59,955 nucleotides of DNA, taken from positions 1-59,955 of the IMG/VR virus record IMGVR_UViG_3300047409_000695; one strand, given 5' to 3'. The notes under the pieces were generated by a model that saw nothing but the letters and a program-made list of their open reading frames with translations, did no database searches and was not told the DNA's origin. The translations under genes and the position numbers were made by a program. Within the stretch, counting starts at the first letter, position 1. The number at the start of each line of letters is the position of its first letter. The stretch comes from a virus (taxonomy: Duplodnaviria > Caudoviricetes). Of this stretch, positions 128 to 59,955 are shown piece by piece.

Positions 128-1698
128 GCCGTCCCTGGCCCGAGCCCGCCGGCCGTTGCCGCCCCGGTCACGCCGTTGACGTCGACGACCAGGTCTTGAT
201 TGATCTGCGCGTTGCCGACGGCGAGAAACCGCGTGTCCTGTAACGATTCGATGACGGCCGCGTTCTGCGACTGGATCGCCGCCTGAATGTCGTTCGCCCG
301 CCATTCGAAGAAGTAGTAGTTATTCAGGAAGTCGGCATCGGATGGCGCCGAGCCGCCGGTCGGGTTCAGCGACAGATAGATCCGGAGCGTTTGAATCTGT
401 GAGACCAGCGACACTCGGCACGACAGGTTGAGGTCGTCGTCCGGCAACGTCGCCCGGTTGTAGATCCTCGAGAGGTCACGCGCCGCCCAGCCGGCCCCCG
501 TCCGAATCCCGCCGACGATATCCGTGCCGCCTGGCAGGATGTGCTCGAGCGCGGAATCCTGAAAGGTCTCGCCAGCGACGTGCGCGACCGTCAGGAATGC
601 CCGGACGGCCGGAATGCCCTGAATCGACTCCCCGGTGAAGTGCTGGATCGTTGTAAAGCAACGGAAGGACTGAATCCCATCCGGGCCGAGCGCAACCGAT
701 TCGATGCGAACGATCTCGCCGCCGTTCAGGGCGACCAGGCAGTTCACCGGAAAGTCGACCTGCCGCGTCCGAGCGTTGGCCGCGTTCAACGGGTCAGGCT
801 CCGGCGGCACGTCCCCGGGCGTCGGAATGAACCGAGCGGCGTAGTCCTGCTGAGAAGGGGCCTCGATCTGCCCGGTCCCCAGCGACGCGAGCGGCTGGAT
901 CGTGCAGTACCCCGTGACGCCGGCGTCGTAGATGATGGCCGCGATGACGGTCGTCGCGACCGCCAGGTTGACGTCAGTAATGAACACCGTTTCGGACGCG
1001 TCGAGGCCGACCATCATGCCCGCGTTGATCCCGTTGATCGACGTCGGGATGATCGACGCGTACGACGGCGCCGTGAACACCGTGCCGTGGTTGTTGTCGT
1101 AGAGCAACTGAAAGATCGTCGTGTTTGTGCGCGGGACCGTGGCGATCGGCCCCGTCGCCGCTCCGACCAGGTTCCACGGGATGAACGCCCCGCTGAAGAT
1201 GTCGATGACGTTGATCCCGATCTGCTGCAGAACCGCGGTCGGCTCGTTGACCGGCGGCGCGATGCCCACCTTGAAGACGTGCCCGTTCGCGTCGGCCTTG
1301 CGCGCCTTCGCCGTGTCGAAGACATAGAGCCACGGTTGCGCGGCCTGCGGGGGCGACGACGCGACCATCGACAACGGGTCGCCCGAGTAGCCGGCGTCGA
1401 TGTTCGTGAAGACCCCGCTGCCGACGACGCTCGAGAACAGGTTATTGCCGGCACCGACAAAGTACAGATGCGGGTTCGTGGCGAAGGACGTCGGATCGTC
1501 GAAGCGCTGAATCGCGTTGATTTGGGCGCCGAGGTTGCCGACCAGGGTCAGGCCAGGCCGAGCCGTGATCTGGTCGATCTCGTACGACCGGACGTTCTCG
1601 GCGAACCCGTACTTCCCTGGCGGCATGTCATCGATCGCCGTCGTCAGCTTCACGCCGGCCCAGAACATCCGACGCTGTTCTCGAGTAAAAGCACTCAT
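1..1698 (-). CDS. 5' part of large tail nozzle/tubular-like virion protein (joins 57861-59828; about 1221 aa in total)
   Basis: ATG at 1698 overlaps the upstream stop (ATGA); MSAFTREQRRMFWAGVKLTTAIDDMPPGKYGFAENVRSY...; in frame with the 57861..59936 ORF across the junction; missing from the ORF track because it runs off the edge; position after the adaptors matches P22 gp10/T7 gp12-type genes. Confidence 0.75.
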   Translation of the reverse strand, partial: MSAFTREQRRMFWAGVKLTTAIDDMPPGKYGFAENVRSYEIDQITARPGLTLVGNLGAQINAIQRFDDPTSFATNPHLYFVGAGNNLFSSVVGSGVFTNIDAGYSGDPLSMVASSPPQAAQPWLYVFDTAKARKADANGHVFKVGIAPPVNEPTAVLQQIGINVIDIFSGAFIPWNLVGAATGPIATVPRTNTTIFQLLYDNNHGTVFTAPSYASIIPTSINGINAGMMVGLDASETVFITDVNLAVATTVIAAIIYDAGVTGYCTIQPLASLGTGQIEAPSQQDYAARFIPTPGDVPPEPDPLNAANARTRQVDFPVNCLVALNGGEIVRIESVALGPDGIQSFRCFTTIQHFTGESIQGIPAVRAFLTVAHVAGETFQDSALEHILPGGTDIVGGIRTGAGWAARDLSRIYNRATLPDDDLNLSCRVSLVSQIQTLRIYLSLNPTGGSAPSDADFLNNYYFFEWRANDIQAAIQSQNAAVIESLQDTRFLAVGNAQINQDLVVDVNGVTGAATAGGLGPGTAAQAGSKMLALGNLQWLELRCKIRDLQRVGTDPSLSLANVTAV

Positions 1699-3494
1699 GG
1701 CGTCTCGGTCGCTTCTGGCGTATCAAGGTACGAGTTGACACGCATCTCCTGGACGGTCTGCTGCAGCATCGGGCCGCGGTTCGGCACGTCAGCCTGATCC
1801 AGCTTCATCGTCACGCCGCACGCCCCGAAGAACCGTTGTAGTAACTGGACGGCCTCATTCAACTGGCCGGCGCCTTCCTTCACCATCGCGAGGTACTCGG
1901 CGTAGTCGTACAGGGAGTCCAGCACGGAATCGTCAATCCCGAGGTTGATGCAATCCGTCGGGTTCACCGGGACCGGCATGTTCGCCACGACGTCGACCGT
2001 CACCACATAGCCGGCGCCGCCGTTCGTATCAGGCGGGGGCGCACACCCGACGATGTTCTGAGCGGTCGTCAGGAGCCTCGCCGGCGCACCGAGGGTCGTC
2101 TGCCAGGTGCGTTGGTACATGTCGACGTCGGTCACGCTGTTGACCTGCGTCACGGCCCCAGCAATGAAGCCGTCGAGCAGGACCGAGGCCTGCGTCGCGA
2201 GCTCGATCCCCTGCGTCCACCGGTCCTGGCAGTGCTTGGCGCGCGCCGGGTCGTTGGCGACCCCTTCCATCCCGAATAGGTCGGCGAGCGCTCCAAACTT
2301 GACCACCCAGGTCCAGTCGTCAGGCACGCCGAGCAGGGTCGCCGATACGGCCGGGTTGAACGTCGGCGACAGCACGACGGCCAGGAGCTCGAGCGTCCCC
2401 GCGACACTCGGGGGCGGCGCCAACTGCACCGACAACGGCGGGTTGACGCTGACCGAGTAGACCGTCGGCCAGCTATCCGTCGGCGGCGCGGCCGTTTGCC
2501 ACGCGCGGTTGTACTTCTGCAGGGACCACGAATCGTCGCGGACCAGAGGAATGACCGTGCCGTTCGCCATGATCCACGCGGCACGCCGGATCGAGATGAC
2601 ATTCGACGGGATCACGACGCGGCCGTTCGCGTCAGGCGTCAGGCCAGTGACAGCGCGCGTCACGACGGCGCCGGTCTCTCGGATGAACTGATCGGTCCGA
2701 CGCTGAATAGCCCCGACGACCTCGTTGAAGTTGAACATCGACGTGCCCGACCACCCGCTCGAGTTCGGCGGCTCCATGACCGAGTACTGGATATCGAGCA
2801 CGAGATCCCGGTCCGTGACGTTGTACGCCCGCAGGGCCGGAATGACCGTCGGCATGTCGTAGAACGCCGCGGCCGGCGCGGTCGTGAACGTGGCGCGGTT
2901 CCGGTACGTCTGCGTCAGGGCGTTGTACGTGCGGAGCGCCTCGACGAGATACCGCTGGATCTCGGCCGAGGTCCAATGCACCAGGTTCAGGTCACTGAGC
3001 CTCGAGGCCACGTCCAGAATCGCCTGCGAGAGCGGATAGCAGACCGACTGCCCGGGCACACCGCACTCACCGGTCGGCGGCGCCCAGCCGTCGCACACCG
3101 GGCTGTTGCCGAACTGCAAGTCGTAGTCGAGCAGAAATTCGGCGAGGACTTGATCGGCTTGCGCCGGAATACTGGCGCCGTTGACGAGAAAGACTCTCCC
3201 GGTCCACGTCGTCCCCGGTCCGATGATGACGTTGTTCAGGGACGTGATGAACGGCGCGTTACAAACGACCCGGTTCCGAGAGACTAACTGTAGGGCTGGA
3301 TTGATCGGGGGACACCCGTAGGTGTTCCCAAAGGCCGTGACGGTGGTGTTGTCGTCGAACAGACCGTTGCCGAAGAAGTCGTTCGAATCGAACTGAAAAA
3401 ATGCCGTCGAGAGGCCCGCGTTGCCGATGATGAAGTTACTGAACGTGAACGGCGGCGTCAGTGGACCGACAAGGGGCGGTGTGCCGCACGACAT
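1695..3494 (-). CDS. virion head-tail adaptor-like protein with N-terminal extra domain (599 aa)
   Basis: ILDVASRLSD...WTSAEIQRYLVEALR helical motif typical of podovirus adaptors; synteny. Confidence 0.55.
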   Translation of the reverse strand: MSCGTPPLVGPLTPPFTFSNFIIGNAGLSTAFFQFDSNDFFGNGLFDDNTTVTAFGNTYGCPPINPALQLVSRNRVVCNAPFITSLNNVIIGPGTTWTGRVFLVNGASIPAQADQVLAEFLLDYDLQFGNSPVCDGWAPPTGECGVPGQSVCYPLSQAILDVASRLSDLNLVHWTSAEIQRYLVEALRTYNALTQTYRNRATFTTAPAAAFYDMPTVIPALRAYNVTDRDLVLDIQYSVMEPPNSSGWSGTSMFNFNEVVGAIQRRTDQFIRETGAVVTRAVTGLTPDANGRVVIPSNVISIRRAAWIMANGTVIPLVRDDSWSLQKYNRAWQTAAPPTDSWPTVYSVSVNPPLSVQLAPPPSVAGTLELLAVVLSPTFNPAVSATLLGVPDDWTWVVKFGALADLFGMEGVANDPARAKHCQDRWTQGIELATQASVLLDGFIAGAVTQVNSVTDVDMYQRTWQTTLGAPARLLTTAQNIVGCAPPPDTNGGAGYVVTVDVVANMPVPVNPTDCINLGIDDSVLDSLYDYAEYLAMVKEGAGQLNEAVQLLQRFFGACGVTMKLDQADVPNRGPMLQQTVQEMRVNSYLDTPEATETP

Positions 3495-5175: not shown

Positions 5176-5184
5176 CGTGCACTC

Positions 5185-6207: not shown

Positions 6208-6249
6208 GAGTCCGTGATCCTCCTATCCGGAGAACCGCTCCGGACCCGC

Positions 6250-6660: not shown

Positions 6661-6669
6661 CGGTGACTC

Positions 6670-7485: not shown

Positions 7486-8133
7486 CTAACCGCGCTCGTT
7501 CAGCCGTCGCAGGCTGACAAGTTTCAGACCGCCGTTCGTCGCCAACTGCTCGGTCGGTCCGAGGTAGCGGTTGGCGAAGAGCGAGTTATCCGACCACGTC
7601 GTCGGGTTCGCGTTCGCCACGGTGTCCGCGAAGCCGTTGTCCGCGCCGGCGCCTGCCGCCGCACAGAACGCCGCCTCGCCGATGCCCGTCGGCGCGTGCG
7701 TGAGAACGGCCCGGAACTTGACGAAGGTGGGCCCCCAGCACTGGATAAACGAGAAGTTGCCGACGCCCCAGGTCGACGACAGGACAATGCCGGCTGGGTA
7801 CTGCGCGCCTGGCACCGTGCCGCTCTCAAGGGTCGTCACGACGAACAGGCTGTCCGTCGAGCTCGCGAAGGCATCCCAGAACACGATCTGGCCAACCACG
7901 GGATTCGCCGTCGATCCGGCCGACAACTGGACGTACCGGAAGCCGCCCCCGAAGACGGTGCCGACCGCCGAGTTGAAAATCAGTTCGCTGTCGTCGAGCT
8001 CGAGGATCTTGCCCAACTGCCCGGGCGCCAACCCGACCTGCGGGCCGATGTTGCCACCGCCGCCGCCGGCAATCGAGTCGTTGACCTGGTTGATGTTGCC
8101 GGACGCGATCCGCTGAATCAGTTCCATCGACAT
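7486..8133 (-). CDS. capsid decoration/cement-like protein
   Basis: directly downstream of the major capsid gene; FRYVQL and GNFSFIQCWG motifs resemble capsid cement proteins. Confidence 0.5.
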   Translation of the reverse strand: MSMELIQRIASGNINQVNDSIAGGGGGNIGPQVGLAPGQLGKILELDDSELIFNSAVGTVFGGGFRYVQLSAGSTANPVVGQIVFWDAFASSTDSLFVVTTLESGTVPGAQYPAGIVLSSTWGVGNFSFIQCWGPTFVKFRAVLTHAPTGIGEAAFCAAAGAGADNGFADTVANANPTTWSDNSLFANRYLGPTEQLATNGGLKLVSLRRLNERG

Positions 8134-8172
8134 GATGAGTGTCCTTTACGTCTTGAGCAACCGTTCTTCTGA

Positions 8173-9408: not shown

Positions 9409-10299
9409 CTACGCCGCGGGTTTCCGATACTTGCCGGTCGTCAGCGCCGACACCGCGCCCGACAGACGCTGGCTCGGTTGCGGACGCTGCATGACACTGC
9501 CCTTGACGACGTTCGACGTTTTGAAGACCGGCGACTCGTGGCCCTGCTGCGACTGGTGCCCGCCAGGGAGTGCGGCTTCGGACAAGCCGGCGACCCGGCC
9601 TTCCTCACGCGCGTTCTTGATGGCGGTCTCCCGCTCGAGCGTCGACGCCGCGATCCGCTTCTCGGGAATCCCGAACTGCGACTCCCAGCGCTTGACCGGA
9701 TCGAGGTTTTCGGTCTTGTTCGCCGCGATGTCTTTTTTGATGCCGTCGATGAATGCGCGACGGTTGAACTTCTCGCCGGTCAGTCGCTGATGCTCTTCGG
9801 CGATGTCGTCAATGGACGCGTTCAAATCGAGCATGTAGCTCGCGACGCCGCCGACCATCAGGTTCAGGTCTTTTCGCAGGGTCTTGTCATCGAACGCCAC
9901 GGCAGCCACCTTCTTCGGCTCGGGCGCTGGCTCGACATCGCCCAGCACAGTTTTCGGATCGACGCCGTGCTCTTCGGCCAGCCGCGTCAGCTTCTGCGTC
10001 AGGCGGAACGATCGGCTCTCTTCGGCTTCGATGCGCTCTTTCAGCTTCGTCGCGTTGCCCTGTTCGTCGGCGGTTAACGTCGCGAACTCGGCGAGGTCGG
10101 CATTCAGCCGCTCGTTCGCTTCGGCGAGCTCGTCTTTCGTTTTCTTGATTTTGTCCATCTCGCGGCTGTAGTCGGCCTGCATGAGTACGGACTTTTCGAG
10201 CTTGTCCGAGAACGGGGTCAGCTTCTCGAGGACGATGGCGATATCGGCATCGGCCATTCCCAGTTCACTTTTCAGGTACTTCTGTACGTCCAGTGCCAT
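9409..10299 (-). CDS. capsid scaffolding protein
   Basis: charged coiled-coil with MQADYSREMD motif, immediately upstream of the MCP. Confidence 0.7.
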   Translation of the reverse strand: MALDVQKYLKSELGMADADIAIVLEKLTPFSDKLEKSVLMQADYSREMDKIKKTKDELAEANERLNADLAEFATLTADEQGNATKLKERIEAEESRSFRLTQKLTRLAEEHGVDPKTVLGDVEPAPEPKKVAAVAFDDKTLRKDLNLMVGGVASYMLDLNASIDDIAEEHQRLTGEKFNRRAFIDGIKKDIAANKTENLDPVKRWESQFGIPEKRIAASTLERETAIKNAREEGRVAGLSEAALPGGHQSQQGHESPVFKTSNVVKGSVMQRPQPSQRLSGAVSALTTGKYRKPAA

Positions 10300-10351
10300 G
10301 GTCTTTCTACCTCCCCACCTTCCCGCGATGCTCTGCGGGGTCCAGTAGGAG

Positions 10352-10645
10352 TTATGGGAGTTCGTCTGCTGATGGCGTCTGTTTTGGCGCCTTCGCGGCG
10401 ATCCCGGTGATGACTTCCTGAATCAGCTTTCTGAACTTCTCTTGCTGGGGCTTGAGGAAGGGCAAGCCGGCCAGCAACTGATTGAACGACTCGCTCGCCG
10501 ACCGCACCTGACCGATCATCGCGTTCAGGTCCGGTCCACCGCCTTGCGGTGCGCCGGCCGGTGCGCCGGCTGCGGCCGGAGCGCCCCCGCCCGCGTTGGC
10601 GTCCATGCCCGTCGTCGGGCCGGCGCCTGGCACCATGGGCGGCAT
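10352..10645 (-). CDS. Pro/Gly/Ala-rich small protein
   Basis: 97 aa between portal and scaffold, coupled to the upstream peptide. Confidence 0.6.
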   Translation of the reverse strand: MPPMVPGAGPTTGMDANAGGGAPAAAGAPAGAPQGGGPDLNAMIGQVRSASESFNQLLAGLPFLKPQQEKFRKLIQEVITGIAAKAPKQTPSADELP

Positions 10646-10648
10646 CGA

Positions 10649-10774
10649 CTATCTCCGCGACTTGCCGCCGCGGCCTTTCATGCCTCGACCGAACGGGTTG
10701 TGCATCTGCGTCACGATGGACGCCTTCCGCCCGCCCTTTCGGCCTTTGCGGCCTTTGCTTCGTCGTCGCGCCAT
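10649..10774 (-). CDS. 41-aa Arg/Lys/Gly-rich (protamine-like) peptide
   Basis: MARRRSKGRKGRKGGRKASIVTQMHNPFGRGMKGRGGKSRR*, GAGG RBS; below the ORF-track cutoff. Confidence 0.7.
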   Translation of the reverse strand: MARRRSKGRKGRKGGRKASIVTQMHNPFGRGMKGRGGKSRR

Positions 10775-10813
10775 GGAAACCTCTGTGGAGAAAATGAATG
10801 ACTGCCCGGATCC

Positions 10814-10850
10814 GAGCGTGGGACGACGGTCAACACCGCCGTCCCCGCTC
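10814..10850. other. GC-rich hairpin in intergenic region
   Basis: gagcgtgggacgacggt-caac-accgccgtccccgctc. Confidence 0.6.
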
Positions 10851-10919
10851 GCCGCAAACCCTGTTTCGCCGAGGGGACCAACCGCCTATCCGCGGCTGCT
10901 CGTTTTCGGCGAGCGAGGT

Positions 10920-10979
10920 CTAGCGGTGCTTCTTGCGTCCGCCCTTGCGACCCTTGCGCCGGTCTCGAATCATGTCCAT
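10920..10979 (-). CDS. 19-aa basic micro-peptide
   Basis: MDMIRDRRKGRKGGRKKHR* preceded by GGAGGT Shine-Dalgarno; shares KGRKGGRK with 10649-10774. Confidence 0.6.
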   Translation of the reverse strand: MDMIRDRRKGRKGGRKKHR

Positions 10980-11060
10980 GTGGACCTCCACTTTCAGTCA
11001 CCCGAGGATCGGGCACTGCACGCCGGAAGAATGCGACAGGACGTCGCTGATTGGAAGAGG

Positions 11061-11297
11061 TTACGAGACGTTGTCGTGCAGTGGTTGCACGGATGCCGAC
11101 AAACCGGGCGGTGTTCGGCACGTCAATCGGACGCGCACCGATTCGATATCGACCCGCACGCCGCGATCGGGAGACTCGACGCCGATCAGAATCCGGTCAC
11201 GAATCCAGTAGTAGATCGTGCGTCGCGACACGCCGAAGATCTCCATGCACTCTTCGATCAACAGCGTCGTGCGTGTGGTCCGCGAGATATCGATCAT
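11061..11297 (-). CDS. excisionase/MerR-like HTH DNA-binding protein
   Basis: EECMEIFGVSRRTIYYWIRD; ATGA-coupled to the portal. Confidence 0.7.
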   Translation of the reverse strand: MIDISRTTRTTLLIEECMEIFGVSRRTIYYWIRDRILIGVESPDRGVRVDIESVRVRLTCRTPPGLSASVQPLHDNVS

Positions 11298-13303
11298 GAC
11301 GTCGTGATGGTCTGACGACTGCCGCCGTCTTTCCCTTTCAACTGCGGCGCCTTTTTATTCGTCGGCGGACGTCCTGGCCCCTGGCCGGCCGGACCGCCCT
11401 GTAGTTCTTCGGCGAGCTCTCGTGTGATGTGCTGCTCGGCGACCCAGCGCTCGAACATATTGTGCGTGCCCTCCGGCTCCGGCCCGAGGTTCGAGAGCTT
11501 GAACGACTTCCCGATCGTCCACCAATCGATCGGCAGCCCGGCTTTCCGCAACTGCAGCAGGGCCAGCCGGTTCACCATCCGATACATCTCGTGCACGCCG
11601 GATTCGGTGATGACGTACTTGAACTCGTTGAAGTACCGGCGTGCGCGCTCGATCTTGGCGTCTGGTTGCTCGCCTTCGATCGGCGGCACGAGTTGATCGG
11701 GGTTGAAGACTTCGTCGTGCATTCCTCTCGGGTCATCCGGCCCGAACTCCATGGCGTCGGTCTCGTCCTCCGATGGCCCGGCGACCTGAATGACCTTCGA
11801 GCGGCTGTAGAACTGGAAGTAGTACGCCAGGCGCCACGTCCCCAGTTGCCACAACGGCCGCTCGAGTTGACGCATGAGATCCTGCACCAACGGCCCGGCC
11901 ATCTCGATCAGCTTCTCGAGCGTGCCTTCACCCGGTACCTGTTTCGCCTTCGCAACAGCGACCAGGTCCGGCGTGCCCATCTGATTATCAAGGCGAGCCT
12001 CTTGTTGTTTGATCCACTCTGGAATAACGGCCGGCACGTCGTACAACTGATACGGCACCGGGAACTTGATCAGGTCGCCGGCGTCGAGGTTCGCACCGGC
12101 TCGAGACCCCGCCTTGCGCGGATCGAACGACTTCGCGAACCCTTCCGACGCTTTCTGGTCGTCGTAGATGTACGGCGGGTCCAGCCGAGCGGCACACGAG
12201 TCTTCGATATACCGCATCAGCGCGACGATGCCCTCTTGTAGCTTGTTCGGCGCCGCCAGCATCGATCGGCCGAGCGCTTCCCAGGCCAGGTCGTTGAACA
12301 GCGTGCGCGCGAGCGGCACCTGGCCGTGCCACCACGGCGAGCTCCCGTCGTAGATCGTGAACGTGCGCGTGAAGACCGTGTAGCGCCGGTACGGGAACAG
12401 CCGGCAGTCCTTCGCCGTCGCCGAGCGGGTCTCCGGCGTCTGCGTGCCTGGGACCATCCGTCCGGTCGGAATCGCCGACCCGAGGACCGGCACCTTGTAC
12501 GACCAGTTCGTGCCGTGCGTGCCCATCGTGACCGGCACCGGTTTCTCGTTCACGGCGTTGTCGAGCGTGTACATCTTGAAGATGTCGACGGTCGGAAACG
12601 ATCCGGTCTGCTTGCGGCCCGAATTTCCGGCGACGCGGAGCGCCGGCGACCCGCCCATCAGCCGTTGCAGCTTCCGGAGACCCTTCATCAGCCAGCCCGG
12701 GGCGTCACGATCGGCGACAAACCGGCTCGCGAAGAACGGGTATTCCCGTCGGGCCAGGTTGATCGGAACTTCTTCCTTGATGATGACGGCGTACGCCTTC
12801 TGGATATCGTGGTCGGCCGGCAACTGCAGAAACGTGACGTTGGCCGGGTTGACCGCCGTCAGTCGAATCTCCTGCTCGTCACGGTCGTAGTCTTCGTAGA
12901 GATAGCCCGTGCCGAGTGCGGCCGCGTACTGCAGGTTGGCGCGTTGCTTGTCGTGAGCGTTGGACTCGCGGTACCAGTGGCGGTCTAACTTCGTGAGGAT
13001 GTGGGCGCGGTCGTAGAGCTCTTTATTCCATCGCGCCTTGTACTCGCCGTCGTGTCGGAAATTGGCCAGCGACGCGACGATGTCCCTGAAATTTCGTTCG
13101 ACCTTGTCGTATCCAACGTTGCTGAGACCGTCGACCGGCATCGCGGCCATGTCCGGCCCGAGGCTGTCGAGCACCTTGTCCCATTCAGTTGTCGGACGCT
13201 GGGCGCCGAGCCAGGCTTCCCCCTCTGAGACGGCCTCGAGCAGCCACGGCAGCAGAATGTCGTTGGACGATCCGTAGCTTGGGATCTCGTGGGAGCCGGC
13301 CAT
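11294..13303 (-). CDS. portal protein (P22-like)
   Basis: 669 aa downstream of terL; helical; SSPWWHGQVPL...GRSML motif. Confidence 0.75.
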   Translation of the reverse strand: MAGSHEIPSYGSSNDILLPWLLEAVSEGEAWLGAQRPTTEWDKVLDSLGPDMAAMPVDGLSNVGYDKVERNFRDIVASLANFRHDGEYKARWNKELYDRAHILTKLDRHWYRESNAHDKQRANLQYAAALGTGYLYEDYDRDEQEIRLTAVNPANVTFLQLPADHDIQKAYAVIIKEEVPINLARREYPFFASRFVADRDAPGWLMKGLRKLQRLMGGSPALRVAGNSGRKQTGSFPTVDIFKMYTLDNAVNEKPVPVTMGTHGTNWSYKVPVLGSAIPTGRMVPGTQTPETRSATAKDCRLFPYRRYTVFTRTFTIYDGSSPWWHGQVPLARTLFNDLAWEALGRSMLAAPNKLQEGIVALMRYIEDSCAARLDPPYIYDDQKASEGFAKSFDPRKAGSRAGANLDAGDLIKFPVPYQLYDVPAVIPEWIKQQEARLDNQMGTPDLVAVAKAKQVPGEGTLEKLIEMAGPLVQDLMRQLERPLWQLGTWRLAYYFQFYSRSKVIQVAGPSEDETDAMEFGPDDPRGMHDEVFNPDQLVPPIEGEQPDAKIERARRYFNEFKYVITESGVHEMYRMVNRLALLQLRKAGLPIDWWTIGKSFKLSNLGPEPEGTHNMFERWVAEQHITRELAEELQGGPAGQGPGRPPTNKKAPQLKGKDGGSRQTITTS

Positions 13304-13944
13304 CAGTCGCGGAACCTGCGACCGTCAGAACCGCGCGAGTCGTCGCGATTCGATCGATCGTTCGAGTAGACCTCGACGAAGATCCCGCCTTCATAGGCCC
13401 GTGGCCGAGGCCGTTCGTAGTTCTGAGCTTGGGCTGCCTGCATGATCGCGATGCCGCGCTCGGACATCTTAACGGATTTCATCCGTCCGGTCCGCCGACC
13501 CTTCTCGTCCACTTCGGGAATCTGAAACGAGTTCCGCAAGCCGTGCGTGATCTCGGACCGACGACGCTTTTCCGCCATCTCTCGCATCTCGAGCCGACGT
13601 TCTACCTTGCGCGCGATCTCCGAGGCCTCGCGGGTGTTGACGTCCCGCTCGAACTTTCGGACTTCGGCGAACCCGCGGAGCTCCACACGCTGATAGCCCA
13701 GACGCTCGTAGTTGTCGACCGACCGGCCGCTCGTGGCGCCAGGGAACCGATACGATCCGTCCGGCGCCTTGAAGACGACGACGGCCGCGGCTGACGACCG
13801 GGACGAGATCAGCGAGTACTCCCGAATCGTTTCTGTGCCGCACTTCGGACACGGCGGCAGGACGTCCGACTGAGACATCGCCCGCATGTCGTTGAAGATG
13901 GCCTCGCACTCGGCGTTCGTGCACTTCTGCCCGTAAATCGGCAT
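13303..13944 (-). CDS. FmdB-like zinc-ribbon protein
   Basis: true start MPIYGQKCTNAEC...CPKCG at 13944, coupled to the terL stop. Confidence 0.75.
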   Translation of the reverse strand: MPIYGQKCTNAECEAIFNDMRAMSQSDVLPPCPKCGTETIREYSLISSRSSAAAVVVFKAPDGSYRFPGATSGRSVDNYERLGYQRVELRGFAEVRKFERDVNTREASEIARKVERRLEMREMAEKRRRSEITHGLRNSFQIPEVDEKGRRTGRMKSVKMSERGIAIMQAAQAQNYERPRPRAYEGGIFVEVYSNDRSNRDDSRGSDGRRFRD

Positions 13945-30127: not shown

Positions 30128-30355
30128 ATGAGACCGAATCGATCCCGCATTGCCCTGGCTGCCGTCCTGCTCGCCGTCCTGGCCTCGAGCGCCGTTGCTC
30201 AGTCGAAGGTGTACGTGTCGGCGAGCGGGAAGAAGTACCACACGCACGCCGACTGCCGAGCGCTGAAGTCCTCGACGGTCAAAACGATCGACCTGAAAGA
30301 CATCGGCGATCGGACGCTTTGCGCGATCTGCGCACACCGGAAAGCCGGCAAGTGA
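30128..30355 (+). CDS. secreted small protein with KYH...C...CxxC metal-binding domain
   Basis: signal peptide ...SSAVA|QSK; VYVSASGKKYHTHADCRAL...CAIC. Confidence 0.7.
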   Translation: MRPNRSRIALAAVLLAVLASSAVAQSKVYVSASGKKYHTHADCRALKSSTVKTIDLKDIGDRTLCAICAHRKAGK

Positions 30356-46988: not shown

Positions 46989-47063
46989 TGGCTGGCCAGG
47001 GTGGATTCGAACCACCGACTTTCCGGTTAACAGCCGGACGTTCTGCCGCTGAACTACCGGCCA
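46989..47063 (-). tRNA. tRNA-Asn(GTT) with encoded CCA
   Basis: TGGCCGG TA GTTC AGCGGCA GAAC G TCCGG CTGTTAA CCGGA AAGTC GGTGG TTCGAAT CCACC CTGGCCA G CCA; complete 75-nt cloverleaf. Confidence 0.95.
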
Positions 47064-48442: not shown

Positions 48443-48742
48443 CTATTGGTGGTCCCGGATGCGATTCACGTCGGCCCGGAGTTCGTCGAGCCGAGCATCG
48501 GTAAAACGGAAGTGTTCTTCCTGGCGGACCTTCGTCATCTCGAGGTTCCCGATCCCGTCTTGAATCTCTCCCCATTTCTCGCTGAACCGCGTCGAGGCTT
48601 CGACGAACCGCTTCTCGAGGGACGTTAGGCGGGCCTCGATCGACGGTTCACCCGTGACGCGGCGCACGAACTTTTCGGCCGTGAGCAGGACGACGCACAC
48701 GAAGTTTATAAGGACCGTGACGCCGACCAGCGCGGCAATCAT
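48443..48742 (-). CDS. TM plus coiled-coil protein
   Basis: MIAALVGVTVLINFVCVVLL then heptads. Confidence 0.6.
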   Translation of the reverse strand: MIAALVGVTVLINFVCVVLLTAEKFVRRVTGEPSIEARLTSLEKRFVEASTRFSEKWGEIQDGIGNLEMTKVRQEEHFRFTDARLDELRADVNRIRDHQ

Positions 48743-53406: not shown

Positions 53407-53643
53407 CTACGGCGGGGTCGGTTTGCCCGTCAGCCCCGTGATGTTCAACGGATGCGTCCCCGTCGCCGACAACGACTTCTGCACTTGCGCGAGTTGTGCC
53501 GGCGTAAACTGGTCGGCGCTCTTCCCGAATTTCTGTAACGCGACGATCGACTCTTCCAACTGGTTGATGTACCGCTGCGCTTTCTGCAGGGCATCCCGTG
53601 TCGTGCCGTCGACGCCGGAGAGCGATCCGAGGTCGAGTGGCAT
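53407..53643 (-). CDS. small tail-associated protein
   Basis: 78 aa coiled-coil, TAATG-coupled. Confidence 0.55.
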   Translation of the reverse strand: MPLDLGSLSGVDGTTRDALQKAQRYINQLEESIVALQKFGKSADQFTPAQLAQVQKSLSATGTHPLNITGLTGKPTPP

Positions 53644-55499
53644 TACTGCAACGTCACGCCCGACGCATTGGCGTTCTGAAGTTCAGCGACCGTCATGACC
53701 GTGTGGTTGTTCGAGCCGCCGCCGCCCTTCGTGACCGTCACGTTCACAGTAAACGTCTGAGTGGCGCCAACGCCACCCGCAACCGCCGATACCGCGTAGG
53801 CCAGCGTTTCCGTCGTGGCACCCGCGACGCACGAGGTTGCGGTAATTGCCGCAGTCGCTGCAGTCGCCACAGTCGCCACACCTGTCGTCCGAGTAATGAC
53901 AATGTTGCCCTCGAGGATGTTCGTGCACTCGTTCGCACCGATGGCGCCCCCAGCGCCCAGCGAGCCGGCGACACGAACATGCAGGTTCGCCGACTGAGCC
54001 GCGTTCGGAATCGAGACCGTGAACGTCGGCGTCGACACCCCGTCGGCCAACCCGGTCGTCGCATACGTCTTCGTGGCCGTCGTCGTCGCCGCACCGGCGA
54101 CCGCCGTACCACCGACGACCGTCGACGTCGTCGCGCCCAAGGTCGTGATAAGCGGCGAGGCCGTGTACGCCGGCACCGTGCCGACACCGCCAGACGCGAG
54201 CACCTGGCCCACCGCGACGTCGGCCAGCGAGCCGATCGTGTTCGCCCCCGTGGCGACCATCAGATCGCCCTGCGTCGCCGCGTTCGGCAGGACCAGGGTC
54301 GAGCAGATCGGGTCCGCCCCCGTGGCGCCGCGGACGTACGTGCCGTTCGTGCAGACCGCCATCGGCGTGATGGCACCGGTCCCCTCGCCGAGCAGGATGC
54401 CGTGTGCGGTCAACGTCGTGGCGCCAGTGCCCCCAAACGGCACCGTGATGGCCGTTCCGTTCCAGACCCCGGTCGAGATCGTCCCGACCGTCGACAACGA
54501 CGCCAGGGCTGTGACCGTGGTCGTGACCAGTGTGCCCGCGGTCGGTAGTGTCAGGTTCGTGGGCGCCGTGACGGTCAGGACCGTCGCAAAGGCGCCGGAG
54601 AAGGTCAGGGCGCCGCCCAGCGACACCGCCTTACCGCCGATCTGTCCAACGGTCGTCGCCAGCGTCGCGCCCGCACTGGTGACGTCACCGGTCAGAGCAG
54701 GGAAGTTCGCCGCGAGGATCGTGCCGGTCAACTGAGCGGCCGGCAAAGCCGTCAGGTTCGCCCCTGACAGCGACGAAAAGAACGTGCCGGTCAGCGTCAA
54801 CTGCGGCGAGACCGTCGTCTTGACGGTCGCCCGACCTTTCGCGTCGAAGGTAATCTGCGGAATCGCCGTCGCCGATCCAACGGTTCCCGCGCCGACGCCG
54901 GTCGTGGCCAAGGTCGTGACGAGTGACGCGCCTGGCGTCGTGATGTCTCCGGTCAGCGCGGGGAAGTTTGCCGCCGGCAACTGGCCCGAGATCGTGGCCC
55001 CTGTAACCGACGCACACGTTGTCGTGCCCGTGGAACTGATGGTCGTGACGAACTGATTCACGCACGCCGACGATCCCGGGTAGATCGACAGCACGCCGGT
55101 ACCGGTCGTATTGAAGACCAGGCCCGAAGCCAGCACGCCGAGGATCTGGGCGTTCGCCGGCGCGTTCGTCGACGTCTGCACGATGTAGGTGCCGGCGCCG
55201 TTCGCGCCGCCCGCCGGCGCCGTCCACGCGCCGCCGTTGTTCTTGATCTCGATCGTGCCGTTGTTGTCTCGGACGCCGTAGCCGTTCACGCCGCGGAGCG
55301 TGCCGTACGACAGGTACCCGTTGGCGACGATCGCCGCGTTGTTGAACGCGTACGTGATCCCGCTCGAGGTCGAGCCGAACCGGAGCAGGTTCCAAAAGTT
55401 GTTGATCTGGGCCGTGACGACCGACTGGGCCTGCGGCGTCGCCGACACCACGCCCAGCAACAGGGCGACGACAGCGAGCGCTCGCAGGCGGTTGGTCAT
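53643..55499 (-). CDS. tail-fibre-like protein with Sec signal peptide
   Basis: MTNRLRALAVVALLLGVVSATPQA|Q; T/G/A-rich; AANFPALTGD(I/V)T repeated twice; GGTGATT fibre motif; three Cys pairs. Confidence 0.7.
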   Translation of the reverse strand: MTNRLRALAVVALLLGVVSATPQAQSVVTAQINNFWNLLRFGSTSSGITYAFNNAAIVANGYLSYGTLRGVNGYGVRDNNGTIEIKNNGGAWTAPAGGANGAGTYIVQTSTNAPANAQILGVLASGLVFNTTGTGVLSIYPGSSACVNQFVTTISSTGTTTCASVTGATISGQLPAANFPALTGDITTPGASLVTTLATTGVGAGTVGSATAIPQITFDAKGRATVKTTVSPQLTLTGTFFSSLSGANLTALPAAQLTGTILAANFPALTGDVTSAGATLATTVGQIGGKAVSLGGALTFSGAFATVLTVTAPTNLTLPTAGTLVTTTVTALASLSTVGTISTGVWNGTAITVPFGGTGATTLTAHGILLGEGTGAITPMAVCTNGTYVRGATGADPICSTLVLPNAATQGDLMVATGANTIGSLADVAVGQVLASGGVGTVPAYTASPLITTLGATTSTVVGGTAVAGAATTTATKTYATTGLADGVSTPTFTVSIPNAAQSANLHVRVAGSLGAGGAIGANECTNILEGNIVITRTTGVATVATAATAAITATSCVAGATTETLAYAVSAVAGGVGATQTFTVNVTVTKGGGGSNNHTVMTVAELQNANASGVTLQ

Positions 55500-55550
55500 A
55501 TCAGCATCCTGGCGGAATGGGCCGGTGCAGTACGAGATACAACATCTTGA

Positions 55551-56009
55551 TTAACGGCCAAAAAATCCCACCGGGGCAACCGGACCCGCCGGAACTGGAT
55601 TGACCGTCAAGGCGAAAGGGTTCGATTTCAGCGACTCCTTCGCGTTGCACGTCGGCCCCAGCACACAGTTCGCACCGGTCGCCGTGACCTGCAACGTGTG
55701 CGTGCCCGTCGTCGACGGCACGATCCACGGTCCCGTAAACTGCGACAGGTTCGTCACCGTCGACGTCGCGCCCTTCGTCATCGCGAGCGCGGTCGCCACG
55801 CCGTTGTCGTACACCGTCCAGCCCGTGATCACCACCAACGGCGTGCCATCCGTCGCGGTCGGTGCCAAACAGGCCGAGAACTGGATCGTCGAATTGACGA
55901 CGGCCGTACCGGTTGCCGGGGTCGTGTTCGGGTTGTCGCAGGGGTTCTGCGCGAACGCGCCCGTCGCGTAGAGCAGAGCAAGTAGTGTCAGTCCGAGTAG
56001 CCGTCGCAT
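55551..56009 (-). CDS. secreted Ig/FN3-like protein in the tail module
   Basis: MRRLLGLTLLALLYATGAFA|QNPC; GTHTLQVTA...ESLKSNP; four Cys. Confidence 0.7.
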   Translation of the reverse strand: MRRLLGLTLLALLYATGAFAQNPCDNPNTTPATGTAVVNSTIQFSACLAPTATDGTPLVVITGWTVYDNGVATALAMTKGATSTVTNLSQFTGPWIVPSTTGTHTLQVTATGANCVLGPTCNAKESLKSNPFALTVNPVPAGPVAPVGFFGR

Positions 56010-56027
56010 CGTCGTCTCCTTGTCGCG

Positions 56028-57338
56028 TTACGAAATCTGCTGTATCGAACACTCGTGGTTGTAAACGGCCGTGCTCGGCGTCCCTGTCGTGGACACCGTG
56101 ATCGCCGTCGCCGCCTGGGCACGGATGACGATCGGGACGCCGTAGTAGCCGACCGTTCCCGCGGCCGTCAGCACGTTCGTCACCGTCCCGCCTGCCGCCA
56201 ACTGCCATACGACCGCCACTGACCGCGCCGTGCCTTCCTCTGTCTTGAACGCAATCGTGCCGTTCATGTTCGTGGCGGCGCCCGCGGTCGTGACAAGGAT
56301 GTAGTCCCAGACCTCAAACGTGCCGTCGGCGGCTGGGGTAAAGGTGCAACGGTTGGCGTCGAGTGAACTGGTGATGGCGACGCCGCGACCACTCTGTAGG
56401 ACGTACGGTACGCCGGAACCGGTCGTCGTCAGGTTGTTGTAGGCCGTGATCTTCGCGCCGATATCTAGGTTGCCGGTGCCCGCGGTCAACGCTCGGCCGC
56501 GGAGCTTCAGCGTGCTGTCTGTCGCTACATCGATCCCGATGCCGGCCGCGCCAGCCCCGTTCGACATGACGAGTTGGCCGTCAGTCGCGCCGTTGAGCGC
56601 CCACGTAAATTTATTCGTGCCGCCGCTCTGTAGATGCAACGTGGCGCTGTTGAACCAGACGTTCGACCCGTCCATCGCGATCGGCTGATTACCATTGACG
56701 CACAACCGCTGCGTCGTCCCATCCCACGACAGCCCACCGTTCAGGGCACCAATGAACGCGTAAGAGGTCGCCGCACAGTTACCGCTGGCGATGGCTTGGA
56801 CCTGACCGCTATTGGCCATGAGCAACCCGGTAGAGTTGATCCTGACCCGCTCGCCAGCGATGCCGTCCGTCGTGTTCGTGAAGAACCTTGTGCTACAGCC
56901 AGTTGGAGTCGCCGAGAAGCACGACACGATGTCCCAGCCAGGAGTACCGTTCGTACAGCCGACGCCGCAGTTGTCGTACAACGTCGCCCGTTGAGGCTCA
57001 GTAGTGACGTTGAGACCTTGAGCCGAGATACACCCAACCGAAGTGTCTGACCTGAAACACCCTTCCGCGGACGCCGCGTTGCCCGCGTTATTGTTCCACC
57101 ACAAAAACTGCACGTTGCTGTTCTGGTTGAAGACCGCGCTGAACGGGTGCCCAGCGTCCGGCGTGCCCGCCCCCATCTTGATAAAGGTGCCGACGTTCAA
57201 CGTCGTGAATGAGATCGAGCCCGTCCGGAGCAGGTTCCAAAACTGCTGAATCTGGGCCGTGAACGTCTGCGCGTGCAGGTCGACGCCGGCAACCAATAGA
57301 CCGATCAAGACCGCGAGTACGAATCGACGCTTCGTCAT
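56028..57338 (-). CDS. tail-fibre/spike-like protein with Sec signal peptide
   Basis: MTKRRFVLAVLIGLLVAGVDLHA|Q; ERVRINSTG fibre motif; ten Cys. Confidence 0.7.
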   Translation of the reverse strand: MTKRRFVLAVLIGLLVAGVDLHAQTFTAQIQQFWNLLRTGSISFTTLNVGTFIKMGAGTPDAGHPFSAVFNQNSNVQFLWWNNNAGNAASAEGCFRSDTSVGCISAQGLNVTTEPQRATLYDNCGVGCTNGTPGWDIVSCFSATPTGCSTRFFTNTTDGIAGERVRINSTGLLMANSGQVQAIASGNCAATSYAFIGALNGGLSWDGTTQRLCVNGNQPIAMDGSNVWFNSATLHLQSGGTNKFTWALNGATDGQLVMSNGAGAAGIGIDVATDSTLKLRGRALTAGTGNLDIGAKITAYNNLTTTGSGVPYVLQSGRGVAITSSLDANRCTFTPAADGTFEVWDYILVTTAGAATNMNGTIAFKTEEGTARSVAVVWQLAAGGTVTNVLTAAGTVGYYGVPIVIRAQAATAITVSTTGTPSTAVYNHECSIQQIS

Positions 57339-57347
57339 GCCTACTCC

Positions 57348-57854
57348 TTAGTACGACTGCATCGGCTCGAGCCAGAACGTCGCATTGACCGCCCCGCCCG
57401 CGCCGGCACTCTTCGCGACCGTGTCGACATTCTGGGCGGCGACGTGCAGCGTCGGCGGGTTGACCGTGTTGATCGTGTCGAGGTCGACGTACGGAATCGC
57501 CAGGCCGTCGATGTAGAACCGGAACAGTCCGCCGCCGAGCGCGACTGAGTTGAACTGCTGGCCCTGCACAGTCGCGAACTGAAAGCGGCTGATGAACCCG
57601 TCGGTGCCGATGACGTTCGTTAGTCCGGTCGCCGAGTTGAAGAAATCGAACTCTAGGCCGACCTGCTGCACACATAGATACTCGATCGCTCGAATGAGGA
57701 AGCGCCTCGAGGCAATCGCCGGCACGCCCGGAATATTGTTCATGGCCGTGCCGACAAAGGGCGGCGTGTTGAAGCCGGCCGCGGCACCCAGGGCCTCGAG
57801 GAAGTTGACCGTCGGCAGCGCGTTGACCGGATACAGGAAGCTCTGAGGCATCAT
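57348..57854 (-). CDS. minor virion structural protein (beta-sandwich)
   Basis: 168 aa, GGAG RBS, tail module. Confidence 0.55.
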   Translation of the reverse strand: MMPQSFLYPVNALPTVNFLEALGAAAGFNTPPFVGTAMNNIPGVPAIASRRFLIRAIEYLCVQQVGLEFDFFNSATGLTNVIGTDGFISRFQFATVQGQQFNSVALGGGLFRFYIDGLAIPYVDLDTINTVNPPTLHVAAQNVDTVAKSAGAGGAVNATFWLEPMQSY

Positions 57855-57860
57855 GCACTC

Positions 57861-59955
57861 CTAAAACGGACGGACGATCTGGTAGCCGCCAGGCTCACCC
57901 CACACGTTGACCCACGCTTCGAAGTCCTGATCGAACAACATGAACGGCGTCGCCGACTGAAAGCCGTACTGGAACGCCATCCCCTTCACTGACTGCAGGA
58001 TGACCGGTATTTTCGCATAGATGCCCCCGGACGACGGCAAGTTATACGTCAGCACGTTCCCGTCGACGATCAGACTGAAGACCACCGGACTGGTCGAGAG
58101 GTAAGCGACGACGATCTGCTTGCACTGCTGGAAGCTCCGTTGCCCGTGGGCGGTCGGACCACTCAACCAACTAGATGCGAGCTCCGGCGCCGTCTGGAAG
58201 GCCACATCCCAGGCGTACAGGATGGTCGGCGTCGCGGTCGGCGCCCATTGCACGACCGTCGTTAGGTTCGTGCCGAAGTTTCCGGTCTGCAGCGTCGCGT
58301 TGATGTCCTGCTGCGTGCGCGTCGGTCCCGCGCCGGCGAGCGCGACGGGCGCCAGGACGGCGGTGTTATTCGTGAACCCGATCGTGACCGAGACCGGATC
58401 GAGGTTCTGGCCGTCGAGCATCAGATCCCGATACAGCTTCTGCCGGCGGGTGTCCTTCTGGTTCTCTACCCATTGAAGCGTCGACGTGAACGCGACGCCG
58501 TTGTCGGTGATGCCCGCCGGCGTCGACAGTGCCCCGCTCGCCTGGCCGATCAGCATCTGGTGCACGGACTGGCCGACACCGGCCGCTCGAGCCGACACGC
58601 CCGACGCGTACGTGTCGTAGTGCCACGACCCATCGAGCTCTCGGTACCCGAGCGAATGAGCGACGCCGTTGATATCGCGGTAGTCGAAATACACCCAGCC
58701 GTCGATCGCGTTCAACTGCAGGATCGTCCCTGCCATGTTCGGCGGTTGGATCCCGTTGACGGCGACCCCGGCCTGGCCATCGTGCGGGAAGATCGGATAC
58801 AGGTCGTCGTCTGTCACCATGACGGCTCGGCTGCCGCCCTTCGTGACCGCGATGCCGTCTTTCGTGAGGAAGTACGTGCCTTTCAACCCGTGGCAGAAGG
58901 CCCAGCGCGTCCAGAACCCCCGTCCACAGTCCGTCACCAACGGCACGAACGTCGACACCTGCCCGAAGGTCGGCTCGAGACGATAGATGTCTTCCGTCGA
59001 TGCCACGTACGACACGCCGTCGTCCATGAATCCGGCCATGAGCGGTTCGTTCGCCGGCGTGACGTCGAGCGTGTTCTTGTCCGAGGCCGTTTCCGGGTCG
59101 TTGCCGTTCGTCCAGTGAACCTGGCCCGGGTTGATCGAGTCCGCACACCCGAAGAGGAACGTGGCGCCGGCGATCGGACCGCCCCAGGCGGACGCGATGA
59201 CCTGATTCAGCAACGTCGCGCCTTTGACCGTAAAGGCCTGCGCGTTCAGGTTCCCGATGTTCTCGTTCGTGAAGAGCAGGTTCGTCGACGGCGGTTGCGA
59301 GTACAGGGTGTACGTGTTCCCGTTGATGATGATCTCGGAACCCGGTGCCCAGTTGACGTTGAACGGATCGCCGCTGACCCGAACGACCGCGTTGCCCGCG
59401 TAGTTGCACACCCCGCTATGTGGCGCGTCCTGCGTCGGCCAGGGCGGGAAGTTGTTGTAGTCCGGAGTCTCCCCGCCGCTGATCGCCGAATCCGAATAGT
59501 CGTGGTTGTACGGTTGCCCGCTCGGCACCGTCCCGCCGTACGTCCAACGATTCAGCGTCGCGCCGAGGATGAACCAATCGACCAGGTCGGCCTGCGGGTC
59601 CGGCGAGACCGTGTGGTTGAAGACGATCCGCTGACGCTTGGCGGGCACGCCCCCGCGCAACGGCGGTGAGAAGTTACTACGCCCGCCGGTCAACGAGGAC
59701 CGGTACCGGTACATCCCGACGTACGGGATCGCCGTCACGCCCGAGTCCGGTCCGAAGCCGCCCGTGATCGACAGGCCATCCCAGTCGACTGAGATCGGAT
59801 TCGGGCCGGTCTGATGCACCAAGAGTTCGACGGCCGTAACGTTCGCCAGCGACAGCGACGGGTCCGTGCCGACCCGCTGCAGGTCTCGAATCTTGCACCG
59901 GAGCTCGAGCCACTGCAGGTTGCCGAGTGCCAGCATCTTCGAGCCGGCTTGCGCG
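57861..59955 (-). CDS. 3' part of the tail nozzle/tubular-like protein (continues from 1698 across the junction)
   Basis: open frame to the window end; propeller-like GTYFLTKDGI, K(L)YRDLMLD motifs. Confidence 0.75.
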   Translation of the reverse strand, partial: AQAGSKMLALGNLQWLELRCKIRDLQRVGTDPSLSLANVTAVELLVHQTGPNPISVDWDGLSITGGFGPDSGVTAIPYVGMYRYRSSLTGGRSNFSPPLRGGVPAKRQRIVFNHTVSPDPQADLVDWFILGATLNRWTYGGTVPSGQPYNHDYSDSAISGGETPDYNNFPPWPTQDAPHSGVCNYAGNAVVRVSGDPFNVNWAPGSEIIINGNTYTLYSQPPSTNLLFTNENIGNLNAQAFTVKGATLLNQVIASAWGGPIAGATFLFGCADSINPGQVHWTNGNDPETASDKNTLDVTPANEPLMAGFMDDGVSYVASTEDIYRLEPTFGQVSTFVPLVTDCGRGFWTRWAFCHGLKGTYFLTKDGIAVTKGGSRAVMVTDDDLYPIFPHDGQAGVAVNGIQPPNMAGTILQLNAIDGWVYFDYRDINGVAHSLGYRELDGSWHYDTYASGVSARAAGVGQSVHQMLIGQASGALSTPAGITDNGVAFTSTLQWVENQKDTRRQKLYRDLMLDGQNLDPVSVTIGFTNNTAVLAPVALAGAGPTRTQQDINATLQTGNFGTNLTTVVQWAPTATPTILYAWDVAFQTAPELASSWLSGPTAHGQRSFQQCKQIVVAYLSTSPVVFSLIVDGNVLTYNLPSSGGIYAKIPVILQSVKGMAFQYGFQSATPFMLFDQDFEAWVNVWGEPGGYQIVRPF
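59829..59955. repeat. second copy of the terminal overlap
   Basis: identical to 1-127. Confidence 0.95.

Follow-up and report, generated by a model that had tools for sequence, protein, structure and literature searches.

Tailed-phage particles are taken to assemble entirely in the cytoplasm; T5 Llp and Cor of T1/phi80-like phages, encoded beside receptor-binding genes, are small receptor-blocking lipoproteins. In the podophage SU10 (Kuravirus), two kinds of trimeric fibres are described as anchored to the adaptor and the nozzle through their N-terminal residues (PMC9509320), and in the predator Bdellovibrio bacteriovorus all 21 fibre adhesins, Bd2133 and 20 others, are reported to consist of a signal peptide, a conserved N-terminal domain and variable tips (PMC10769870). 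Phages of Porphyromonas gingivalis are described as carrying five leader-protein genes of unknown function (PMC10367356), and a Q-rule, by which Gln stands at +1 of the signal peptidase I site, is given for Bacteroidetes (PMC5837995). Here we analyze a stretch of 59,955 bases, the whole of virus record IMGVR_UViG_3300047409_000695 (hereafter the window), in whose tail module three consecutive genes open with predicted Sec-type leaders. Two of them encode long proteins of 436 and 618 amino acids (aa), here called fibre 1 and fibre 2, and we give even odds to their being trimeric receptor-binding tail fibres made as Sec pre-proteins, a reading that rests on sequence comparison and predicted structure.

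The likeness to Llp and Cor is that of phage proteins predicted to be exported and encoded beside a receptor-binding gene, from which these differ in being long and fibre-like and in lacking a lipobox. With SU10 the phage shares a short tail, an SU10-type adaptor domain and ejection proteins encoded nearby (PMC9509320), but the fibres of SU10 dock by their own first residues, with no leader mentioned in the parts of that account available to us (PMC9509320), whereas both fibres here begin with a Sec-type leader. They further differ in sharing one N-terminal helix, and in lying downstream of a large tail protein, and no sequence match to the SU10 fibres was found. The Bdellovibrio adhesins match in architecture, with signal peptide, conserved module, trimeric phage-fibre-like shaft and exchangeable tips, a likeness of build only, and a structural resemblance exists between the Bd2133 tip and the head of fibre 1 (Z 7.8, rmsd 3.7, 116 residues aligned); they are, by contrast, cellular proteins displayed on the predator surface, with a beta-rich conserved module of ~130 aa (PMC10769870) in place of the short helix found here. 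Common to the P. gingivalis phages and the present one are phage genes with signal peptidase I-type leaders exposing an N-terminal Gln, although those five genes are not described as fibres in the text available (PMC10367356) and the host here is probably not of Bacteroidota. In a literature search that left subscription journals and supplements outside its scope we found no published account of Sec-exported tail fibres in tailed phages; the P. gingivalis phage leader proteins and the Bdellovibrio fibres are the nearest in print. To these the present locus adds a high-G+C lineage probably not of Bacteroidota, a docking-type helix common to two fibres of one phage, strict cysteine parity and natural leader-bearing/leaderless pairs.

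Leaders, cysteines and a shared N-terminal helix

Fibre 1 (P0001, 436 aa; 56028..57338, minus strand) comprises a leader (residues 1-23), a conserved helix (24-41), a variable middle with 8 Cys and a C-terminal head (307-436). Fibre 2 (P0003, 618 aa with 6 Cys; 53643..55499, minus strand) is built of a leader (1-24), a helix (25-41), a conserved N-terminal domain that ends near residue 95, fibre repeats and, at residues 474-608, a C-terminal beta domain, and between the two lies a small leader protein (P0002, 152 aa with 4 Cys; 55551..56009, minus strand). The original prediction held that all three open with signal peptides, and all three leaders indeed pass a simple, home-made test for n-, h- and c-regions: MTKRRFVLAVLIGLLVAGVDLHA before Gln in fibre 1 (57270..57338, minus strand; predicted cleavage before Gln24), MRRLLGLTLLALLYATGAFA before Gln at the N-terminus of P0002, and MTNRLRALAVVALLLGVVSATPQA before Gln in fibre 2 (55428..55499, minus strand; predicted cleavage before Gln25). 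Their hydrophobic cores span 12-15 residues, with best 10-residue Kyte-Doolittle means of 3.4, 2.7 and 3.1 and net charges before the core of +3, +2 and +2 in the 436-, 152- and 618-aa proteins, respectively. The AFA before Gln in the 152-aa protein is a canonical signal peptidase I site, and the LHA of the 436-aa protein places Leu at -3. Applied to the whole window, the same test singled out, beyond these three, just one other protein with a convincing leader (30128-30355, plus strand); otherwise it flagged some small membrane proteins as well as antisense and internal frames that are spurious. Gln occupies +1 in all four leader proteins.

Each of the three genes starts with ATG, preceded by AAGGAG 6-7 nt upstream in the 436-aa and 152-aa genes and by AGGA in the 618-aa gene. 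Compared with its counterpart on the related contig L003, the 436-aa gene has 9 synonymous and 4 non-synonymous differences in leader codons 1-23, and thus its leader is both translated and constrained; codons 24-41 differ by 4 synonymous and 0 non-synonymous changes. The next Met of this protein lies past the conserved helix. Given the Shine-Dalgarno-like sequences and the constrained leader codons, translation from starts downstream of the leaders, which the original prediction had named as grounds for refuting it, is not borne out.

Two other sorting routes were considered and set aside. Tat signals carry a twin-arginine motif, S/T-R-R-x-F-L-K, in a long leader with a weakly hydrophobic core. 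The 436-aa protein does have KRRF, but KKR or KRK stands there in relatives, no RR is conserved in the 618-aa family, and the leaders, at 20-26 residues, are strongly hydrophobic in their cores. For lipoprotein sorting, the lipobox is absent from all three proteins.

Directly behind the predicted cleavage sites stands the conserved mature N-terminal helix, QTFTAQIQQFWNLLRTGS in fibre 1 (57216..57269, minus strand) and QSVVTAQINNFWNLLRF in fibre 2 (55377..55427, minus strand). The former is identical or nearly so in homologues P0012 and P0014-P0017, has invariant columns in alignment A4 of the 436-aa family and is predicted to be helical; the latter shows 60% pairwise identity in its own family, is drawn as a helix (residues 23-38) by AlphaFold2 (AF2) and aligns with that of fibre 1. 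That the two long proteins share this peptide and are otherwise unrelated holds up in BLASTP, where residues 1-45 alone align (53% identity, E 1e-6) and the rest stays unaligned. In fibre 2 the helix is followed by an N-terminal beta domain (55215..55322, minus strand) with the unit GYGxRDNxGxIExKNxGGxW, whose columns G73-W92 are invariant.

Homologue searches covered 5.8 billion proteins. They returned 15 homologues of the 436-aa protein, 11 of which pass the leader test, and 171 of the 618-aa protein at E <= 0.001, where the test is passed by 25 of the 26 closest (P0020-P0045), the exception, P0039, starting inside the repeats; leader-bearing fibres are, as read from these relatives, a family trait found in dozens of them. 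The FWNLLR peptide, put forward in the original prediction as something to look for in other phages, does recur behind leaders in P0012 and P0014-P0017, which have the leader and QTFTAQIQQFWNLLRTGS in common with fibre 1 and differ in their distal parts. In this family one N-terminus is joined to at least four distal parts; where homology is confined to the final ~130 residues of the 436-aa protein, the leader is either unrelated (P0005-P0009) or missing (P0010, P0011, P0018, P0019). Pairwise identity in alignment A4 is 45% for the leader, 83% for the helix and 23% for the rest, and among the 21 aligned members of the 618-aa family it is 27% for the leader, 60% for the helix and 62% for the following domain. 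Gln25 is invariant in all 21 and Ala24 is kept in at least 90% of them. Small residues at -1 and -3, the Leu and Pro at -3 of the two fibres apart, and helix breakers before the site appear to be kept while the sequence of the core drifts, and since this grammar outlasts the leader sequence it reads as a signal-peptide signature. Judged by the same alignments, the proteins have the conserved N-terminal attachment module and the exchangeable distal part of a fibre.

The even, closely paired cysteines that had been noted are likewise confirmed: the 436-, 152- and 618-aa proteins contain 10, 4 and 6 Cys, and the last has the pairs C146...C162 and C383...C399, of which C146 and C162 are invariant in all 21 aligned homologues. 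Among homologues P0005-P0045, the number of Cys outside the leader is even (2 to 10) in each of the 36 leader-bearing proteins, and the four leaderless ones have 2, 1, 1 and 0. In a second set, drawn from the mature-start profile described below, 40 of 44 leader-bearing proteins have even counts, the four odd ones including two short, possibly partial records, and the five leaderless proteins have 1, 0, 0, 1 and 2 Cys. Across differing distal architectures the counts change in steps of two. These sequences are related to one another and so are not independent trials, and the even counts fit an oxidising compartment. From the leader grammar together with the cysteine pattern, we consider it highly probable that the 436- and 618-aa proteins are exported by Sec and cleaved before Gln.

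Leaderless versions, fibre build and position in the tail module

A profile of the mature start, consisting of the helix and following domain without the leader, was searched among 1.84 billion cluster representatives and gave 2091 at E <= 0.001. Many of these match only its second half, which is also an internal repeat of giant proteins: the GYGxRDNxGxIExKNxGGxW unit recurs up to 12 times within proteins of 2000-6000 aa (P0141-P0176). The whole profile lies at the N-terminus in 49 of the best 150 hits. A leader precedes it in 44 of these (42 recognized by script and two behind longer extensions), and the remaining five are leaderless and start 5-8 residues before the helix. The same alternation is seen in a distant low-G+C branch, where leaderless proteins on L054, L064, L081, L082 and L089 begin with MARTDDQW or the like, their frames being closed by a stop 2-6 codons before the start, and leader-bearing ones on L039, L063, L065, L083 and L088 have ...VFA before ARTDNYW. 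Predicted cleavage would therefore recreate the native N-terminus of the leaderless proteins, which points to the helix as the working end of the fibre and to the leader as a rerouting add-on; these leaderless twins are our best argument for that role of the helix. Viral contigs were also scanned with the leaderless P0075 and P0221, and the N-terminal region of neither protein was retrieved.

Two variants on distant contigs may be mentioned here. On L062 (from 4420) the N-terminal fibre domain lies behind a lipoprotein-type signal, LIAG before C, and would represent a lipid-anchored version of the fibre. On L105 (36% G+C) the gene directly after that of the major capsid protein encodes a leader-bearing protein of 571 aa, and the contig also has a leader-bearing fibre in which the GYGFRD unit occurs (5104-6819 and 9839-10828).

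Several lines support a fibre-like nature for the 436- and 618-aa proteins. The central repeats of the 618-aa protein match ordinary leaderless fibres with PF03406 (Phage_fiber_2), PF13884 (Peptidase_S74) and PF12708 (pectate-lyase) domains, while neither protein itself has a Pfam or PHROG match above threshold. The AF2 model of the 436-aa protein (mean predicted local distance difference test score, pLDDT, 63.8) is confident only in residues 307-436 (70-93), a C-terminal head (56031..56420, minus strand) that VIA-align and Foldseek place with C1q/TNF-like jelly rolls. Its VIA-align neighbors are Cbln1 and ExsFA (both Z 8.3), the PRD1 spike protein P5 (8.2), the receptor-binding protein of lactococcal phage 1358 (8.0) and the Bdellovibrio Bd2133 fibre tip (7.8); values of Z near 8 are middling for VIA-align, and the list is dominated by one fold class, with which Foldseek agrees. 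The head is common to the leaderless fibre-like P0010, P0011, P0018 and P0019, and in a comparison with predicted viral structures the 436-aa model is best matched by tail fibres. For the 618-aa protein AF2 gave a poor monomer model (mean pLDDT 45.5), as expected for a trimeric fibre, and this model was left out of fold searches; it shows the leader helix, a second helix at residues 23-38 and the C-terminal beta domain. Against solved structures the 618-aa family profile gave only a chance-level match, to cyclophilin (E 0.0033).

Five loci were examined for gene order, the window and the related contigs L003, L021, L022 and L023, and in all five the 436-/618-type fibres hold the same slot in the tail module. 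The order in the window, L021 and L022 is large tail protein, P0004-like gene, fibre 1, fibre 2, a leaderless gene of what we call the stub family and ejection-type genes, with the two leader fibres of L021 and of L022 representing one N-terminal type each. In L003 the large tail protein and P0004-like gene are followed by two leader fibres that both have the QTFTAQIQQFWNLLRTGS start, the contig ending soon after, and in L023 a single leader fibre comes directly after the large tail protein, so that the P0004-like gene is present in four of the five loci. No promoter-like site was found inside the fibre block of the window, and a weak terminator-like hairpin at the end of the large tail gene is the only such feature.

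The stub family follows the fibres in the window, L021, L022 and L023. Its members are leaderless and have an N-terminal module of ~75 residues in common; in the window only this module is present, in a 78-aa protein encoded 3' of fibre 2 (53407..53643, minus strand), and the relatives have 540 aa in L021 (13808-15430), 407 aa in L022 (8691-9914) and, in L023, both a stub (81 aa, 10221-10466) and a long form (616 aa, 10459-12309) with the Ig-like domains Big_7 and Ig_J, the long members thus ranging from 407 to 616 aa. The family may represent a needle or a third fibre.

Two irregularities were seen in these loci. In L021 the type-2 fibre is split into a 140-aa open reading frame (ORF; 11263-11685) with leader, helix and N-terminal domain and a 671-aa ORF (11755-13770), which a frameshift or an assembly error could explain, if the gene is not genuinely in two parts. 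In L022 a 180-aa Cys/His-rich ORF on the opposite strand (4784-5326), which by eye we take to be an HNH endonuclease, forms an insertion that separates the P0004-like gene from fibre 1.

Proposed assembly route and competing explanations

In light of these results, we propose that late in infection the unfolded fibres would cross the inner membrane, where signal peptidase I would cut before Gln24 or Gln25 and expose the conserved amphipathic helix TAQIxxFWNLLR as the new N-terminus. The fibres would then trimerise in the periplasm and have their cysteine pairs oxidised there, with head and tail assembly going on in the cytoplasm in the normal manner. They would dock on the tail by the exposed helix and next domain as soon as the compartments are joined by holin lesions or by lysis. 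Phages would exchange the distal parts and retain the leader-plus-helix module. Export of such proteins, and their trimerisation and oxidation in the periplasm, are feasible, as Bdellovibrio is reported to make 21 phage-fibre-like adhesins of the same build (PMC10769870). The tail-module slot, modular build and leaderless twins are what suggest docking by the helix, and both the constancy of that slot across the five loci and the leaderless homologues that start almost at the predicted mature start speak in favor of this step. For the whole chain, from export through trimerisation and oxidation to joining the virion, we see the arguments as evenly balanced. Of the two-compartment pathway put forward in the original prediction, the fibre-like build, the leaders, the paired cysteines and the shared peptide with interchangeable distal parts all stand; the joining of virions at lysis is a matter of interpretation, with about the same chance of being right as wrong. 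More tentatively, and at somewhat short of even odds, a widespread group of tailed phages may complete its particles in two compartments, adding fibres at the onset of lysis, with the leader gained and lost repeatedly as a switch of folding route.

If this proposal is correct, then host Sec, signal peptidase and disulfide-forming enzymes would be phage dependency factors, fibre attachment would be tied to the timing of lysis, and the fibres, unlike cytoplasmic proteins, could bear disulfides and in some hosts sugars. Leaders would also have to be deliberately kept or handled in fibre expression and engineering. The leader-bearing and leaderless pairs with the same mature start offer a direct experimental handle.

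Several observations weigh against the proposal. The home-made leader test also flags small membrane proteins, and the PQA before Gln25 of the 618-aa protein places Pro at -3, with a canonical alternative cut after AQS, before V. The adaptor and the large tail protein are leaderless and have 10 Cys each, and disulfides are reported to occur in tails built in the cytoplasm too (PMC13576161). Receptor binding need not fall to the leader fibres alone, since long fibre-like proteins without leaders are encoded beside them in relatives, in one case with Ig-like domains, and the window has further candidate appendages in the very large tail protein, in residues 1-256 of the adaptor and in a protein of 397 aa (3497-4690). 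A periplasm is assumed here from the type of phage and the type of leader rather than from an identified host, and neither fibre had a tblastn match in 50,697 phage records from which cultured relatives could have been recognized. Lastly, the siphophage contig L002 encodes a leader protein (7536-8804; 422 aa as listed, 405 aa from an MKKF start) that is 78% identical to fibre 1 over residues 53-436 (384 residues), has an unrelated leader, lacks the FWNLLR helix and lies between head-tail connector genes instead of among tail-tip genes. It looks like an accessory exported protein, and it implies that podophages and siphophages exchange the distal module along with a signal for export.

This last homologue, with its own leader at a moron-like position between connector genes, lends support to a different explanation, in which the proteins are exported but never enter the particle and act instead on the envelope of the infected cell, masking or removing receptors or serving as adhesins, with the helix anchoring them to an envelope component; superinfection might thereby be excluded, or progeny kept off debris. 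The leader evidence fits this equally well, the leaderless fibre-like genes of relatives could be the true fibres, the Bdellovibrio fibres are described as sitting on the cell surface by their conserved N-terminal domain (PMC10769870), and the leader proteins of P. gingivalis phages are thought to modify the host envelope (PMC10367356). In the window, however, the leaderless neighbor is only a 78-aa stub, and the fibres occupy a fixed tail-module slot, tightly packed in the late block. A periplasmic protein would moreover need a further secretion step to reach the outer face where the receptor lies, and we saw neither such a signal nor a lipobox in these proteins; leaderless members starting at the same helix are also a better fit to a docking element of cytoplasmic fibres than to an envelope anchor. 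An exclusively envelope-directed role, which the original prediction had raised as its alternative in the form of host-surface proteins or receptor blockers, is in our judgment less likely than a place in the particle, though a serious contender.

The hydrophobic N-terminus might alternatively stay uncleaved, as a membrane anchor or buried plug that holds the fibres at the inner membrane until they are picked up by the tail or inserts into the host membrane at infection. AF2 does draw residues 2-38 of the 436-aa protein as a single continuous helix, and for a cut before Gln25 the 618-aa protein offers an imperfect site. Yet a positively charged start followed by a hydrophobic core predicts translocation of the bulk of the chain, and retention of the small -1/-3 residues and helix breakers despite drift of the core would be expected of a cleaved signal; leaderless homologues also manage without the segment, and strictly even Cys counts fit an oxidising compartment. 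We regard retention of the leader as improbable. That the leaders are a gene-calling artefact, untranslated or in another frame, with true starts downstream, has a negligible chance, its sole basis being the many open frames of a high-G+C genome, as against the Shine-Dalgarno-like sequences before the ATGs, the purifying selection on leader codons, the next Met of the 436-aa protein beyond the conserved helix and the dozens of independent homologues built alike.

As for the docking partner of fibres assembled in the proposed way, a multimer prediction with three copies of fibre 1 residues 24-100 and P0004 scored 0.00 and carries no information either way.

Genomic setting and further observations

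The record of 59,955 bases has a 127-bp terminal repeat, giving a circular genome of 59,828 bases, and thus represents an uncultured, short-tailed phage with a ~60-kb genome of ~63% G+C in which the minus strand carries most genes. Family searches name terminase-like, portal-like and major head proteins, DnaB, nucleases, an SMC-like ATPase and a methyltransferase. A 599-aa protein (1695..3494, minus strand) carries the SU10 adaptor domain PF24175 (SU10_adaptor, E 2e-15) and matches the structural protein family phrog_399; a 340-aa protein matches PF24175 weakly, below the cut-off (E 1.8e-4). Downstream of the adaptor come the gene of a 1221-aa tail protein in the "nozzle" position, P0004, the three leader genes and the 78-aa gene, then three Cys-free proteins (220, 493 and 761 aa) and small membrane proteins. 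Because of the terminal repeat of this complete record, the 1221-aa gene spans the record ends: it starts at 1698 on the minus strand, and its C-terminal part lies at 57861..59955 in the joined frame. Its homologues in L003, L021, L022 and L023 have 1251-1365 aa, and neither half matches a Pfam or PHROG family through which kinship with the SU10 nozzle gp17 could have been recognized. As these searches gave no family to the genes concerned, "nozzle" and "ejection proteins", as used in the original prediction, are positional names, and of the proteins in question the 599-aa protein alone matches a family.

P0004 itself (168 aa, leaderless; 57348..57854, minus strand) lies between the large tail protein and fibre 1. 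Its homologues, 63-70% identical, take the same slot in L003, L021 and L022, with no counterpart in L023, and its neighbors in the ESM Atlas are viral proteins without a named family. The 152-aa P0002 has no counterpart at its position in L003, L021, L022 or L023 and is regarded as an accessory peculiar to this phage; Pfam and PHROG searches gave it no family, and the ESM Atlas only weak Ig-like leads (best score 0.82).

Gln at +1 is reminiscent of the Bacteroidetes Q-rule (PMC5837995). The host is nonetheless probably not of Bacteroidota, given the G+C of 63%, the Shine-Dalgarno-like sequences before 18 of 38 genes and the lack of enrichment of the O-glycosylation motif D(S/T)(A/I/L/V/M/T), found 1, 0 and 0 times in the 436-, 152- and 618-aa proteins; Bacteroidota-type O-glycosylation of the fibres was rejected on the same counts. 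A scan of genome contigs for the host gave only weak fibre-repeat matches, in metagenome-assembled genomes (MAGs) of three phyla. The large tail protein matched none of those three MAGs and, weakly, one of 401 Acidobacteriota genomes. When cultured relatives were sought with the distant leader fibres of L063 and L105, the matches were confined to stretches of unrelated fibres from Pelagibacter, Synechococcus and Thermus phages.

The fourth leader protein of the window (30128-30355, plus strand) has 75 aa, lies in the early/replication region, carries the Sec-type leader MRPNRSRIALAAVLLAVLASSAVA before QS and matched no Pfam family. Cys-free proteins starting with MILFLDS.NHY or similar precede the adaptor gene in the window (3497-4690, minus strand), in L003 (840-2027) and in L021 (402-1715 and 1715-4657), where the protein in the adaptor position has 980 aa and a similar start; family searches found no family for them, and they are possible further appendages. 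Among the putative lysis genes, a 99-aa protein (48443-48742) with a membrane helix at its N-terminus and a coiled coil after it looks, judged by eye, like an inner-membrane spanin, with no lipoprotein spanin found nearby. A tRNA-Asn (GTT) gene (46989-47063, minus strand) adjoins the putative lysis genes.

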